Shown here piece by piece: positions 52,213 to 63,997 of a stretch of 64,000 nucleotides of DNA (the stretch's first letter is position 1; the number at the start of each line of letters is the position of its first letter). The stretch is from Escherichia coli (GTDB lineage: Bacteria > Pseudomonadota > Gammaproteobacteria > Enterobacterales > Enterobacteriaceae): assembly GCF_013315695.1 (NCBI RefSeq), contig NZ_CP054353.1. One strand, 5' to 3'. The notes beneath the pieces are model-generated. The model was not told the origin of the DNA and ran no database searches. It saw nothing but the letters and a program-made list of their open reading frames with translations. A program made the position numbers and the translations under genes.

Positions 52213-53630
52213 TGGCGACATGGCAACTTGGCGGGCTGCCTAGCATGGCACCGCAAAATGATAATGCTCCTCGTTCTTCCGTTCCTCAGCCTGTGCAGTA
52301 TCAGCAGCAGCCAAACGTAGGTTTAATGGCGCTACAGGGGCTAAGAGGCGTTGCTGAGATTAATCAGCAGGCACGTCAACAACAGCGTAAAGCAGAGTTT
52401 CAGAAAGCATATGCCGGGGCTTTTGAGTCTGGAGACAGAAACAAAATGCGCAGTCTTATTTCTGAGTATCCAGAAGAATTTGAAAGCGTTCAGAAAGGGA
52501 TGGGCTTTATTGATGACGACCAGAGAAATTCTATTGGTCATCTTGCGACTAGTGCTCAAATCGCATCTTCGCTCGGAACTGGGGCATTTGGAAAATTCAT
52601 AGCAGATAACGAAGATGAAATGCGTCGTTTGGGAATTTCTCCTGAGTCTGTTGCCGAAATGCATGTTAATGATCCACAGGGATTCCAGCGGCTTGCTGGT
52701 AGTATGGCACTGTTTTCTCTCGGTCATGAGAAGTACTTCGATATCAAAGATCGAATGGAAGGTCGGGATATTGAGCGTGGCAAGTTGGCAGAGACGATCC
52801 GCAGCAATCAAGCCGGAGAAGCACTTCAGGCGAGAGGGCAGGATATTAGCCGAGCAAATGCGTTAACGTCAGCATATGCACCAACAGCCGCAATGCAGAA
52901 TTACAATCAATACGCGCAAATGTTAAAGGCGGATCCAGAGGGGGCTGCGGCATTTGCGGCAGCGGCTGGAATTAATACAAACGCCAAAAAATTAATGAGT
53001 GTTAGAGAAAACGATGATGGCACTGTCACAAAATACTACACAGACGGAAGTGAAGAGCAGGGAAAACTAAACCAGCCAATATCTGGAGATGGGTTTCGTC
53101 CAATAGCTTTGCCAACAGCCCAAAAGATCATGGAAAAGTCGCCAGAAGGGGCTAAAAAAGCTGCTGGATTTGCATACAGAGTTAGGGATGCTCTTGATTC
53201 AATAGATACACTGAAAGACCAGCTTAGCCCACAGCGAGTGGCGATCATTAATAATGCTTTGGGTAATGGGACGCTGGCTAACTTAACGCTCAGCCCAACA
53301 GAGCAGCAATACGTTGTTAATGCTAATGACGCAATAATGGCAATACTCCGTCAGGAAACAGGGGCATCTATCCTACCAGCTGAAATGTCCAAATATTATC
53401 AAATGTATTTCCCTCAGCCTGGTGATTCCACAAAAACCATTGATACCAAGCGTAGGAAGATGGAAAACCAGTTCAATTCGCTGAAAGCTGCTTCTGGTCG
53501 AGCTTATGATGCTTTGCGGGTTATTTCAGCAGTTGACAGAGGAACTTCTTCTTCGTCGCAGACATTGCCGCAATCTGAGCAGGTATCACAGCCAGCAGTA
53601 ATTTTTCTTCACTATGGGGTGATTAGGTAA
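52212..53630 (+). CDS. Hypothetical protein (candidate phage ejection/internal protein); 3-prime end runs into IS1
   Basis: 472-aa ORF whose last codons and stop lie inside the IS1 terminal repeat (IS1 begins 53626). Confidence 0.4.
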   Translation: MATWQLGGLPSMAPQNDNAPRSSVPQPVQYQQQPNVGLMALQGLRGVAEINQQARQQQRKAEFQKAYAGAFESGDRNKMRSLISEYPEEFESVQKGMGFIDDDQRNSIGHLATSAQIASSLGTGAFGKFIADNEDEMRRLGISPESVAEMHVNDPQGFQRLAGSMALFSLGHEKYFDIKDRMEGRDIERGKLAETIRSNQAGEALQARGQDISRANALTSAYAPTAAMQNYNQYAQMLKADPEGAAAFAAAAGINTNAKKLMSVRENDDGTVTKYYTDGSEEQGKLNQPISGDGFRPIALPTAQKIMEKSPEGAKKAAGFAYRVRDALDSIDTLKDQLSPQRVAIINNALGNGTLANLTLSPTEQQYVVNANDAIMAILRQETGASILPAEMSKYYQMYFPQPGDSTKTIDTKRRKMENQFNSLKAASGRAYDALRVISAVDRGTSSSSQTLPQSEQVSQPAVIFLHYGVIR

Positions 53631-53640
53631 TGACTCCAAC

Positions 53641-54144
53641 TTATTGATAGTGTTTTATGTTCAGATAATGCCCGATGACTTTGTCATGCAGCTCCACCGA
53701 TTTTGAGAACGACAGCGACTTCCGTCCCAGCCGTGCCAGGTGCTGCCTCAGATTCAGGTTATGCCGCTCAATTCGCTGCGTATATCGCTTGCTGATTACG
53801 TGCAGCTTTCCCTTCAGGCGGGATTCATACAGCGGCCAGCCATCCGTCATCCATATCACCACGTCAAAGGGTGACAGCAGGCTCATAAGACGCCCCAGCG
53901 TCGCCATAGTGCGTTCACCGAATACGTGCGCAACAACCGTCTTCCGGAGCCTGTCATACGCGTAAAACAGCCAGCGCTGGCGCGATTTAGCCCCGACATA
54001 GCCCCACTGTTCGTCCATTTCCGCGCAGACGATGACGTCACTGCCCGGCTGTATGCGCGAGGTTACCGACTGCGGCCTGAGTTTTTTAAGTGACGTAAAA
54101 TCGTGTTGAGGCCAACGCCCATAATGCGGGCTGTTGCCCGGCAT
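53641..54144 (-). CDS. insB: IS1 transposase InsB frame
   Basis: 167-aa ORF identical to the second IS1 copy. Confidence 0.9.
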
Positions 54145-54338
54145 CCAACGCCATTCATGGCCATATCAATGATTTTCTGGTGCGTACCGGGTTGAGAAGC
54201 GGTGTAAGTGAACTGCAGTTGCCATGTTTTACGGCAGTGAGAGCAGAGATAGCGCTGATGTCCGGCGGTGCTTTTGCCGTTACGCACCACCCCGTCAGTA
54301 GCTGAACAGGAGGGACAGCTGATAGAAACAGAAGCCAC
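54063..54338 (-). CDS. insA: IS1 InsA
   Basis: 91 aa with Cys-rich zinc-finger N-terminus ([28 protein letters not shown]). Confidence 0.9.
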
Positions 54339-54611
54339 TGGAGCACCTCAAAAACACCATCATACACTAAATCAGTAAGTTGGCAGCATCACCGAATAAA
54401 CGTATCCTCACGATTGCGCCATTCTTCTTACCGATATTCTGACACACATCATTAACTTTCTATTTTACTCTTTTCTCCACCATAAAATCAATAAAAGCAC
54501 TAACAGTAATTATAAATAAAAACAAAGCCAAAAATCTTGGTTCCAAAACTGGTAACAACTAACCAGTTTAAATATACGCATCAAAATCAGATAAACATTT
54601 GAGGTATTGTC

Positions 54612-54854
54612 ATGACAAAAAAACACCTATCACTGTTTTCTCCTTTTATGCTGACAGAAAAAATAAAGCCATGTAATCGTATCGTTATGGCTCCTATGAC
54701 GACCTGGTCAGCTAATCCTGATGGAACCATCTCTGAGCAAAAACTCGAATATTATAAATGTCGCTCACAAAATATTGGTTTAGTAATTACAGGATATACC
54801 TATGTCACGCCAAGGAAATTCAGGCATCGAAAGGAACTGGCTGGTTTCCGTTAA
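54612..54854 (+). pseudogene. N-terminal fragment of an Old-Yellow-Enzyme-type NADH:flavin oxidoreductase
   Basis: 80-aa ORF with OYE-like N-terminal motif (KPCNRIVMAPMTT), terminating early. Confidence 0.4.
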
Positions 54855-55322
54855 TAGATTAAATATCTATTACTCTCCCGAGAGTAAAACTATCAAATCA
54901 ATGAGTAACCGATACAGCCTCACAAATTCTTTCAGATAATTAACCCGTCACTGCGGCACGTTCTCTCGTAAGGCGTGCCTGCAGTGTAATCCAGTATGTG
55001 TCCGGCATAGTTGACGGTTTAATAGAACTCAATTCCTCTCCCAGGTCACCAACAACGATATCTTGTATAACACCCCAGGAGATACAACATTATGATGAGA
55101 TGCGATATGCTCCTCAGCGCCAATCAATGCCAGGGCTGGGCCAGTCTTGAGATCAGACTCATTCCCGAAACTGACTTCAGGCGACATATATCAATGACGT
55201 TGGTGCAATAAAAGATAGCCGATGTAATACATCTATTCAAATTTGTGATACATGTCAAAAAATTGGTTGACCAAACTCGTTATTTATATAAGTGCACTCT
55301 TTTTTAAAGCGAGGAAGTACCA

Positions 55323-62492: not shown

Positions 62493-62804
62493 GACTTATC
62501 CATCAGACGAGGGAAGAATTCTACCTCAGAGACTCAAAAATCGTTTAAATGATGTGGAAGCGATCGTCAATGTCACCTGTAACGATGAGCTTTCTCATAT
62601 GCACACCACAGTGTTCAGGAGACACGGAAAGGTACCAGGCGGCCTGCTAACGAGTGGTTTCTTCACGAATTAGGACGTAAAATCGGTAACGGCTGGAAAT
62701 CATTCAATACTCACACTATCGAAAGTACACCAGCCAACCGCGATACGTCCCTGCATACGACGTACCGCAGTTCTCTTTACGATTTATAGCTGTACTGGTG
62801 AATT

Positions 62805-63134
62805 ATGAGCAATCTGAATCCATGCATGACGTGTGGTGCCTGTTGTGCATTTTTCCGCGTCTCTTTTTACTGGGCCGAAGCCGACGATGCTGGCGGTACC
62901 ATTCCCGCCAGGCTTACTGAACAAATATCCCCTTTTCACCGATGCATGAGCGGTACCAATCAGAAAAACCCCCGATGTATTGCCCTTGCAGGAACACCGG
63001 GCAAAAATGCCTGTTGCACGATATATAAAAATCGATCGTCCACGTGCAGAGAATTCGCCATGTCTGGTGAGAACGGAGTCGTCAATGAGGCTTGCAATCG
63101 TGCAAGAGCTAAATACGGGCTGACACCGTTATAA
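62805..63134 (+). CDS. ykgJ: Cys-rich putative zinc/iron-binding protein YkgJ
   Basis: 109 aa with CxxCxxCC motif ([11 protein letters not shown]). Confidence 0.8.
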
Positions 63135-63340
63135 ATATGCAATAATTAATTGCACTGCCCCGCCAGCTATAATCGCGGGGCCTCGTTTTTCAGGGATAAC
63201 AAACCCCGAAACTTCTTCCATCTGCCAGCAACAATGCCTCTTCCTCTATAGTGTTCTCCGGATCTACAGCATCCTGAAGTAGCGCGATGTACTCACTGGC
63301 TATCTGCATCAGAAAGTTAAAAACAATGTTTTTAACCTAT

Positions 63341-63368
63341 AAAAATGGCGCTGTATTTGCGCCATTTT
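63341..63368. terminator. Bidirectional hairpin terminator between ykgJ and yagU
   Basis: Perfect palindrome AAAATGGCGC-TGTATTT-GCGCCATTTT flanked by A/T runs. Confidence 0.55.
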
Positions 63369-63382
63369 TATCATTCAATGCA

Positions 63383-63997
63383 TTATCTGTTTGAGCCTAA
63401 AGGGATCTCAGGGTCTGGCTCATGAGTAATTCTGTTTCGTAAATCTCTGCGAATAATTTCAATGGACCAGAACCAGACTAAATGTCCAAAAATTTCAGAA
63501 ACATTCTCATACCACGGGAGATCAAACAGAGGTGGCGTCAGTCCCATGAGAGGGAATGAAATCATATGAACAAAAAGTTGGGCTAAAGCACCTGCCAGTA
63601 AGCCCTGCCAGAGTTTAATTTTTGGAAATACTTCAGCGACCACACAATAACCGACAGCAAACACTATCGAAAAGATAATGTGCGTAACACCAACCCAGTT
63701 AAAGACATGCCCGGCAAAGGTATAAACAGCCGCATTGGGATCTGTCAGCCCCAGCCAGTCTCGAAGAAAAATATACGGAGGATTGAGAAAATTACGGGAG
63801 CAATCAATTTGCCCAGCAGCCCTGATTAATGATTCCGGACCACACGCTGCATTAAACATATCCACCGGGCTACGTGGCGGCAATGGAACTTCAGCCCCCC
63901 ACTTCACAAATGCGGAAACAACGCCAGCAATCAGCCCAATGAATGCAGCAAGACCATAACGTCTGCGGTTCGGTGGAGTTTGTTCAAATATATTCAT
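63383..63997 (-). CDS. yagU: Inner membrane protein YagU (DUF1440)
   Basis: 204 aa with several hydrophobic helices. Confidence 0.8.

Follow-up and report, generated by a model that had tools for sequence, protein, structure and literature searches.

A 23-kb chromosomal segment adjacent to thrW is inverted between oppositely oriented IS1 copies in an Escherichia coli clone

In E. coli, inversions and deletions usually arise by recombination between copies of an insertion sequence (IS) (PMC4173774, PMC5009759), and IS–IS inversions have been described in the long-term evolution experiment (Raeside et al., 2014; PMC4173774) and in mutation-accumulation lines (Lee et al., 2016; PMC5009759). Inversions are also produced by intramolecular replicative transposition “in trans,” as described for IS26, Tn4401, and the IS1-family element ISKpn14 (He et al., 2015; PMC4471558). 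The inversion analyzed here resembles those of the laboratory lines in that it is bounded by opposite copies of the same IS, IS1 being among the most active elements, and in that IS-adjacent deletions occur in the same genomes. It differs from them in its setting, a natural clone of clinical or commensal origin, and in the small size of the segment (23.4 kb), which takes in backbone as well as half of an island integrated at thrW; in addition, the ancestral and several alternative recombinant configurations are visible in sister isolates. Like the systems of He et al. (2015), inverted IS copies bracket the inverted segment and the target duplications are reversed and split; the IS1 copies here are chromosomal and have 9-bp duplications, whereas the IS26 in that study was plasmid-borne, with 8-bp duplications. 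In terms of gene content, the locus corresponds to the thrW/CP4-6–yagU–ecp (mat)–ykgMO region of K-12, with the same backbone genes and a foreign island at thrW. Unlike CP4-6, this island consists of a P4-like replication module and a P22-like ejection-protein module, and no pao genes precede yagU; unlike the K-12 region, ecpRAB and the start of ecpC are deleted and the block is inverted.

The window, i.e., the whole stretch of 64,000 nucleotides that was analyzed (contig NZ_CP054353.1), contains the features listed below. Gene identities and strands were checked by translation and by comparison with NZ_LR898874.1, a near-identical record annotated in RefSeq.

39416-40669, + strand: proA, a fixed left anchor in the K-12 orientation (ORF list, RefSeq annotation of NZ_LR898874.1, and K-12 comparison)
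40784-40859, + strand: thrW, tRNA-Thr (CGU), located with ARAGORN; a fixed left anchor in the K-12 orientation
40860-53625, + strand: proximal part of the thrW island, not inverted, collinear with AF14 and ECONIH1
41025-42239: island integrase, in the proximal island part
47567-50326: island primase, in the proximal island part
52212-53630: gp20-like ejection protein, in the proximal island part
53617-53625: GGGTGATTA, 9-bp target duplication of the phage-site IS1 (one copy); the other copy adjoins the distal IS1 (copy C) outside the window
53626-54393, − strand: IS1 copy A, 768 bp, with IRR on the left and IRL on the right (terminal repeats located); the proximal inversion breakpoint
54394-54402: GAATAAACG, the reverse complement of CGTTTATTC; the backbone-site IS1 has this target duplication, one copy of which now adjoins copy A
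54394-57128, + strand: first part of the inverted segment (oxidoreductase remnant, ykgR, ykgM, ykgO, and ykgL remnant, in reversed K-12 order)
54612-54848, + strand: NADH:flavin oxidoreductase remnant
55323-55424, + strand: ykgR
55789-56052, + strand: ykgM
56052-56192, + strand: ykgO
56227-56401, − strand: ykgL remnant
57129-57896, − strand: IS1 copy B, in the same orientation as copy A
57897-64000, + strand: second part of the inverted segment inside the window (ecpC', ecpD, ecpE, ykgJ, and yagU)
57898-60180, + strand: ecpC', truncated at its 5' end
60170-61813, + strand: ecpD
61782-62492, + strand: ecpE
62805-63134, + strand: ykgJ
63383-63997, − strand: yagU

The proximal island part also encodes AlpA, AntA, Ash, DUF2824, and a P22 gp7-like protein, and a GCCAGCA repeat has lost 7 bp, which carries the gp20-like ORF five bases into IS1. 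This 472-aa chimeric gp20–IS1 ORF occurs in 330 blocks of the genome collection.

The gene order in K-12 MG1655 is proA(+), thrW(+), yagU(+), ykgJ(-), ecpE-A(-), matA(-), ykgL(+), ykgO(-), ykgM(-), ykgR(-), and comparison of the order and strands in the window with this arrangement identifies the block as its reverse complement. The first-pass annotation had proposed that the ykgR–yagU block is inverted relative to proA–thrW, and the translations, the NZ_LR898874.1 annotation, and a local megablast synteny table bear this out. In the synteny table, the flanks were collinear with K-12, MS 21-1, and AF3 on the plus strand and the middle segment matched on the minus strand; in the window frame, the minus-strand match spans 54394-77797. 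The 23-kb segment adjacent to thrW is thus inverted relative to K-12 MG1655, AF14, AF3, and MS 21-1, and all of these examined references have the orientation opposite to that of the window, as the annotation's proposal would predict. The GC skew of the inverted segment was −0.022, with the sign reversed relative to the flanks (+0.046 and +0.043), and the backbone genes were 94.8–97.7% identical to those of K-12. Position 53626, previously given as the start of the block, coincides exactly with the first base of the IS1 that marks the proximal breakpoint.

The IS1 copies have imperfect terminal inverted repeats of approximately 23 bp (GGTGATGCTGCCAACTTACTGAT and GGTAATGACTCCAACTTATTGAT), which lie exactly 768 bp apart in copies A and B of the window and in copies C and D of the complete genome of MSB1_4I. 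RefSeq annotates them as [quoted passage not shown] and the called genes matched Pfam PF03400, PF03811, and PF12759 (DDE_Tnp_IS1 and the InsA zinc-ribbon of the insA-insB' transposase). The copies differ pairwise at 0–2 positions, and copies A and C at 1–2 (positions 262 and 735); these A/C differences do not separate the candidate mechanisms of inversion. The target duplication of IS1 is known to be 8 or 9 bp (PMC5009759). A simple, uninverted insertion in L014 has IS1 between direct copies of CGTTTATTC, and the empty sites carry a single CGTTTATTC and a single GGGTGATTA, respectively, so that 9 bp are duplicated, as is typical of IS1.

The window extends no further than yagU, and the distal breakpoint was therefore located in the most similar complete genomes rather than in the window's own genome. 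The proximal junction is common to two complete genomes, MSB1_4I (99.98% identical to the window) and NCTC GCA_900448625.1, and both have a second, inverted IS1 23,404 bp further along, outside the window, where the first-pass annotation had suggested looking for one. In MSB1_4I, the inverted segment runs 13.8 kb beyond the window end to IS1 copy C (record positions 4053273-4054040), which is on the + strand in the window frame, with copy A on the − strand. Copy A is flanked by CGTTTATTC on its IRL side and TAATCACCC on its IRR side, and copy C by TAATCACCC on its IRL side and CGTTTATTC on its IRR side, which is a reciprocal exchange. The same swapped-duplication pattern occurs in NCTC GCA_900448625.1 (L020, L011). 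Chance can be ruled out as the source of this pattern because the 9-bp flanks are reciprocally exchanged between the two copies, and the inverted pair together with the exchanged duplications supports the earlier suggestion that the inversion was IS1-mediated. Relative to MSB1_4I, the window shows 9 SNPs and two indels, one of 1 nt and one of 228 bp; relative to NCTC GCA_900448625.1, it shows a single mismatch and a single gap in 21.4 kb. Since it matches no examined genome exactly, it comes from a further assembly or isolate of the same subclade, and we infer its distal junction, which would be as in MSB1_4I and NCTC GCA_900448625.1. A literature search on MSB1_4I returned nothing relevant.

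The bounding repeats are identical and have many copies in the genome, a situation that short reads cannot resolve, and an assembler might therefore have mis-oriented the segment between two 768-bp repeats in a chromosome that is actually K-12-like. We consider such an artefact highly improbable. The same pairing of junctions occurs in independent assemblies from different laboratories (the complete MSB1_4I genome, the NCTC genome, scaffold L022/KE702311.1, and the window), the 5.16-Mb contig of NCTC GCA_900448625.1 carries both junctions, and the inverted isolates share sequence markers unrelated to the repeat.

For the empty-site test, the segment was un-inverted computationally and the two resulting junctions, J1 and J2, were searched for in other genomes. 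J1, which joins gp20 to gp16, was contiguous in 301 genomes at ≥ 80% coverage (best identity, 99.2%), and an empty phage site with a single GGGTGATTA was read in the ECONIH1 sequence. J2 was found in 90 genomes at ≥ 80%, with 100% identity in AF14 and NZ_OZ546911.1. These results bear on the idea that the window has the ancestral orientation and that K-12 and the other references are derived, or that a dedicated site-specific invertase flips the segment. Apart from the fact that orientation is relative, nothing favors this idea, and we regard it as barely credible: the un-inverted junctions are IS-free, uninterrupted, and widespread; the gp20–gp16 phage operon, which is contiguous wherever the element occurs, is here split by IS1; and the breakpoints match the IS1 ends and the 9-bp duplications to the base. 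No invertase gene or short inverted recognition sites were found at the breakpoints, and no other inverted repeat of ≥ 20 nt flanks the segment within the window. The island integrases are located away from the breakpoints.

In the uninverted genome of AF3, IS1 is present at both sites, and its junctions with gp16 and with the LysR-family regulator gene are identical to those of MSB1_4I; at its backbone site, a 31-bp stretch beside IRL is missing (22 bp of flank and one copy of the 9-bp duplication). In all retrieved clone members with this version of the island, IS1 adjoins gp16. As both sites are thus occupied by IS1 in uninverted clone members, we favor homologous recombination between inverted IS1 copies that were already in place, and we consider this the probable origin of the inversion. 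The clone ancestor would have been K-12-like, in the order thrW, island, yagU, ykgJ, ecp, ykgO/M/R, LysR-family regulator gene, and fdeC, and would have had three copies of IS1. The first would have separated gp20 from gp16, the P22-like genes of the island, with duplication GGGTGATTA; the second would have removed ecpR-ecpA-ecpB and the start of ecpC; and the third, with duplication CGTTTATTC, would have been inserted in the spacer that divides the NADH:flavin oxidoreductase remnant from the LysR-family gene. Recombination between the first and third copies, which would have been opposite in orientation, would flip the intervening 23,404 bp, presumably through the host RecA pathway rather than the transposase. 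As a result, ykgR–yagU would come to lie directly after the proximal island half, and the reversed distal half would abut the LysR-family gene.

One-step intramolecular replicative transposition “in trans” yields swapped duplications just as well, and homologous recombination is therefore not proven by the structure on its own. In that case, the backbone IS1 would have attacked the GGGTGATTA target in the thrW island of the same chromosome, and a single event would have generated the second, inverted IS1, the duplicated target, and the inversion. The product would be as observed, with inverted IS copies and the old CGTTTATTC and new GGGTGATTA duplications each split between them, and its derivation fits the scheme for IS26 and IS1-family elements (PMC4471558). 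Moreover, the backbone IS1 is known as a simple insertion in L014, and IS1 transposition favors nearby sites (PMC5009759). An uninverted occupied phage site (gp20–IS1–gp16) was found in 0 of 5,426 complete E. coli genomes at ≥ 80% coverage, among the matches listed, which also agrees with a one-step origin; AF3 came to light in this search. No isolate with a pristine site, in which IS1 between two copies of GGGTGATTA separates gp20 from gp16, was found; at this site, every uninverted clone member has lost sequence on the IRR side. The search for the backbone site returned, among the matches listed, AF3 and only loosely related IS1 insertions (AH21F008 and E04).

However, the same IS1–gp16 junction occurs in at least four configurations without the A–C inversion (AF3/L010, L013/L018, L014, and L023), each of which would require a prior re-inversion if the junction had arisen together with the inversion. 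In contrast to the systems of He et al. (2015), uninverted relatives have both IS copies at these same sites, so that a one-step origin is less likely. The 1–2 differences between copies A and C and the derived markers of the inverted isolates also count against it. An ancestor with a single IS1 copy and an empty other site was absent from the retrieved clone members, and the empty-site genomes AF14, MS 21-1, and ECONIH1 lack both IS1 copies or the island; given the limited sampling, the absence of such an ancestor weakens the transposition model rather than eliminating it. On balance, an origin by transposition in one step appears unlikely, and recombination between pre-existing copies remains our preferred reading. 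With regard to the derived markers, MSB1_4I and NCTC GCA_900448625.1 share a (TGAACCAAC)x4 repeat and 735T in IS1 C. The uninverted clone members have TGAACCAAC x3, as does L015, the sole IS1-free island copy with the repeat that was found. The 7.9 kb common to eight clone members yielded two informative markers, a variable-number repeat and an IS1 SNP, which are too few for a phylogeny and are both prone to homoplasy; on the basis of these two markers, the inverted isolates look derived.

Two further parts of the first-pass annotation require revision. It had described a loss of part of the thrW island, but the remainder is present, inverted, beyond yagU: the annotation of the near-identical record shows the distal half with a P22-gp16-like gene, PerC, IS2, and a second integrase, and un-inversion restores the gp20–gp16 junction. 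The island is therefore complete, though split in two. It had also coupled the loss of ecpRAB to the inversion, but another IS1, copy B, bounds this deletion, whose junctions are identical in the uninverted AF3. Copy B has no target duplication (flanks CCATCATCC and TAAGTTTTA) and marks a deletion of 2,346 bp comprising the first 242 bp of ecpC, ecpB, ecpA, ecpR, and 148 bp upstream of ecpR (L007 15607-17952; L005 14092-16437); such a copy resembles the outcome of “in cis” deletion (PMC4471558) or of recombination between direct copies. Because it also occurs in AF3, the ecp deletion is an event independent of the inversion and probably earlier. The common pilus operon of E. coli was inactivated by this separate IS1 event.

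The inversion is an ordinary rearrangement and a fresh instance of a well-known mechanism, and it implies no new mechanism or gene function. It accounts for the non-collinear alignment of this genome with K-12 beside thrW, and it is a textbook-clean case in that public genomes contain the empty sites, the same sites occupied without inversion, and the inverted product. In view of its small size and its position inside a single replichore, and because a prophage operon and an intergenic spacer are all that it interrupts, a phenotypic effect would not be expected. The expansion of IS1 in a clinical clone has led to several alternative chromosome structures around one locus, and we tentatively suggest that the IS1 between gp20 and gp16 may be a recombination hub in this IS1-rich clone. 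If such flips recur or reverse and affect the neighboring genes, the locus could serve as a natural model for the structural polymorphism that IS elements generate within a clone; the neighbors concerned would be the LysR-family regulator gene, the aldo/keto reductase genes, and the ejection-protein operon, now split, of what may be a phage satellite. Among near-identical isolates, at least five different products involve the phage-site IS1. Paired with the backbone IS1, it gives the 23-kb inversion of the window type, and paired with IS1 B, it gives another inversion, in L014. In L023 it is joined to the mak-rdgC...phoA region, which implies that > 100 kb were inverted. L017 has a local inversion of gp7–gp20, and AF3/L010 and L013/L018 have two different deletions next to the element.

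Among 5,426 complete E. coli genomes, MSB1_4I (NZ_LR898874.1, reverse strand) was the best match to the window and the only one to cover the phage/IS1/backbone junction. Over about 62 kb, the two differed by nine substitutions, one 1-nt indel (at 55786), and one 228-bp indel, so the window was taken to come from the same subclade, as a different assembly or isolate. The 228-bp indel (window 15404–15637) lies in the Flag-2 flgI gene and is flanked by GCGCTGCATG(C/A)GGCGG direct repeats; the MSB1_4I RefSeq record lacks its bases and labels flgI as truncated. The NCTC assembly GCA_900448625.1 agreed with the window over 21.4 kb except for a single mismatch and a single gap. 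Both genomes served as proxies for the sequence past position 64000. Translation, together with the RefSeq annotation of the closest record, confirmed the gene identities in the block. In window 1–29000, upstream of dinB-yafNOP, the Flag-2 gene cluster for lateral flagella (fliH/I/J, flgA-L, lafA, fliD/S/K, motA, and lafU) is largely intact. Only remnants of this cluster remain in K-12.

Features of the window and of the MSB1_4I sequence beyond it
39416–40669, plus: proA
40784–40859, plus: thrW
after thrW: integrase gene and island of about 12.7 kb
53626–54393, minus: IS1 copy A, complete, 768 bp
between copies A and B: NADH:flavin oxidoreductase remnant, ykgR, ykgM, ykgO (all plus), then ykgL remnant
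57129–57896, same orientation as A: IS1 copy B, identical in sequence to A
after copy B: 5′-truncated ecpC, ecpD, ecpE, ykgJ (all plus), then yagU (minus)
beyond yagU, rest of the island, reversed: integrase fragment, second integrase, baseplate gene, IS2, then pRiA4b-ORF3 gene, PerC, P22-gp16-family ejection protein gene
MSB1_4I record 4053273–4054040, opposite orientation to A: IS1 copy C
after copy C, K-12 orientation: LysR-family gene, two aldo/keto reductase genes, fdeC, rclCBA-R, ykgEFG

K-12 MG1655 has the order proB(+), proA(+), thrW(+), CP4-6, yagU(+), ykgJ(−), ecpE-D-C-B-A(−), matA(−), followed by ykgL(+), ykgO(−), ykgM(−), ykgR(−), eaeH(+), rclCBA(−), rclR(+), and ykgEFG(+). The same relative order was found in three close relatives: AF14 (a variant of the same thrW island, ecp operon intact), MS 21-1 (thrW site empty), and AF3. 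When the window, lengthened with MSB1_4I sequence, was aligned to K-12, MS 21-1, and AF3, window-frame positions 54394–77797 matched on the minus strand, whereas the flanks (to 53625 and from 78566 onward) matched on the plus strand, with at least 99.9% identity to the relatives. The block is thus inverted, as the first-pass annotation had proposed, and the start which it gave, 53626, coincides with the first base of IS1 A. The inverted segment totals 23,404 bp, of which about the first 10 kb is visible in the window, and its GC skew, −0.022 against +0.046 and +0.043 in the flanks, is consistent with the inversion. The annotation had also supposed that part of the thrW island was lost; instead, the island is split, and in MSB1_4I the inversion ends with its distal half.

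The inverted IS1 that an IS1-mediated event called for at the distal breakpoint is present in MSB1_4I as copy C, and both junctions recur in the NCTC genome. In IS orientation, copy A is flanked by CGTTTATTC at the left terminal repeat (IRL) and TAATCACCC at the right (IRR), and copy C by TAATCACCC at IRL and CGTTTATTC at IRR. This mirror-image swap indicates that two 9-bp target duplications were reciprocally exchanged. The NCTC junctions (L020 and L011) carry the same 9-mers; this agreement of independent assemblies makes an assembly artefact unlikely. We then un-inverted the segment in silico and took out IS1 and one copy of each duplication, giving junctions J1 (phage site) and J2 (backbone site). 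J1 joins a gp20-like ejection-protein gene to a gp16-like gene (…CACTATGGGGTGATTAATGGCTAAAGC…) and is uninterrupted in 301 genomes (best 99.2%; read directly in ECONIH1); upstream, one 7-bp GCCAGCA repeat unit accounts for the only difference in length. In J2, the oxidoreductase remnant meets the spacer that precedes the LysR-family gene; this junction is uninterrupted in AF14 and NZ_OZ546911.1 (100% identical) and in MS 21-1 (99.9%). The ancestral sequence therefore had each target site once and without an IS, and, judged from these junctions, the K-12-like orientation is the ancestral one.

Loss of ecpRAB had been coupled to the inversion, a link that did not hold. The deletion spans 2,346 bp (ecpB, ecpA, and ecpR in full, with 242 bp from the start of ecpC and the 148 bp preceding ecpR) and is edged by a different IS1, copy B, at which a target duplication was not found. 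Since uninverted AF3 has the same deletion junctions, the sequences mark the ecp loss as an independent IS1-associated deletion that is located within the inverted segment but did not result from the inversion. Outside the window, a fourth copy, D (5586–6353 of the MSB1_4I locus L001; record 4035585–4036352), joins truncated lacA straight to ykgG without a target duplication (CCATTCCTG / GGTGTCCCG), implying an IS1-associated deletion of the ykgH-bet…cyn-lacA interval. This interval is present in K-12, and its ykgH-betA/B start also in AF14.

Swapped duplications are produced by a one-step scheme of intramolecular replicative transposition (PMC4471558), and in our own derivation they arose from both this route and IS–IS recombination. 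Two pre-existing inverted IS1 copies would recombine homologously and flip the segment; on the configurations of the relatives and the markers of the inverted genomes, we consider this probable and favour it over one-step transposition. Uninverted AF3 already has IS1 at both sites, with junctions identical to those of MSB1_4I (IRL/GGGTGATTA beside gp16, IRR/CGTTTATTC beside the LysR-family gene), and its copy B junctions are identical to those of the window. Its sole differences at these copies are adjacent deletions: 10.7 kb are missing beside the IRR of the phage-site copy, and 31 bp beside the IRL of the backbone copy (22 bp of flank and one duplication copy).

Further clone members were found by looking up the exact gp16 protein and the gp20–IS1 chimeric ORF in a large assembly collection. 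In L014, the backbone IS1 is a simple insertion flanked on either side by CGTTTATTC, and the gp16 junction is paired with the ykgO-side flank of copy B, which indicates that the phage-site copy and B were the partners of an inversion. L013 and L018 are uninverted and have a truncated gp20, L010 resembles AF3, and L017 has a local gp7-gp20 inversion. In L023, the gp20/IS1 junction runs into the mak-rdgC…phoA region, reversed, which implies a much larger inversion. These loci and AF3 can each be derived in one step from an uninverted ancestor with all three IS1 copies. The 9-bp repeat TGAACCAAC, between the PerC and pRiA4b-ORF3 genes of the island (L001, ~29090), varies in number: four units in both inverted genomes, and three in all uninverted clone members and in L015, the one IS1-free island copy in which the repeat was found. 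The inverted genomes also have the copy C variant 735T in common, and four units are a possible marker of the inverted subclade. A pristine uninverted phage-site insertion was not found among the 5,426 complete genomes, which leaves some room for one-step transposition, but the occupied sites of AF3, the one-step derivations, and the markers common to the inverted genomes make that route improbable.

The same IS1 copies also anchor other rearrangements in the sister isolates. The IRR-side deletions are ~0.7 kb (L013/L018) and 10.7 kb (L010 and AF3), and in a draft scaffold (L021), copy B is joined to yafN-dinB-Flag-2, reversed.

In E. coli, the large rearrangements that occur most often are inversions bounded by IS elements and deletions adjacent to them. 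IS–IS recombination was involved in most of 110 rearrangements in the long-term evolution experiment (PMC4173774), and IS1A was among the most active elements in mutation-accumulation lines, for insertion and recombination alike (PMC5009759). The window inversion has the structure of this class and is mechanistically nothing new. As it breaks an operon of a prophage or satellite and, 150 bp ahead of a LysR-family gene, an intergenic spacer, and is confined to one replichore, we expect it to be near neutral. Its interest is modest and lies in the series recoverable in sister isolates: empty sites, occupied uninverted sites, and several alternative recombinants.

The island (window 40860–53625 and the distal half outside) joins a P4-like module (integrase, AlpA, AntA, Ash, and TOPRIM/DUF927 primase) to a P22-like ejection-protein module (DUF2824, gp7, gp20, gp16, a SieA-like gene, and PerC). 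That part encodes no capsid or tail proteins of its own, and the island may be a phage satellite. In ECONIH1, the same element is found at yicC-dinD, where a different integrase precedes it; in others it lies near ligB. The gp20-like gene has lost one 7-bp GCCAGCA unit close to its 3′ end (window ~53575–53630), shifting the frame so that the ORF ends five bases inside IS1. The resulting 472-aa chimera was found in 330 blocks of the assembly collection, so the phage-site insertion is widespread in the clone. Beside IS2 in the distal half, MSB1_4I (L001, ~32700) lacks 6.4 kb that in AF3 (L008, 21866–28278) encodes the major capsid protein and neighbouring genes, which suggests an IS2-adjacent deletion. 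Besides an integrase of its own, the distal half carries an integrase fragment that in MS 21-1 lies directly beside thrW, which points to tandem accretion of islands at thrW.
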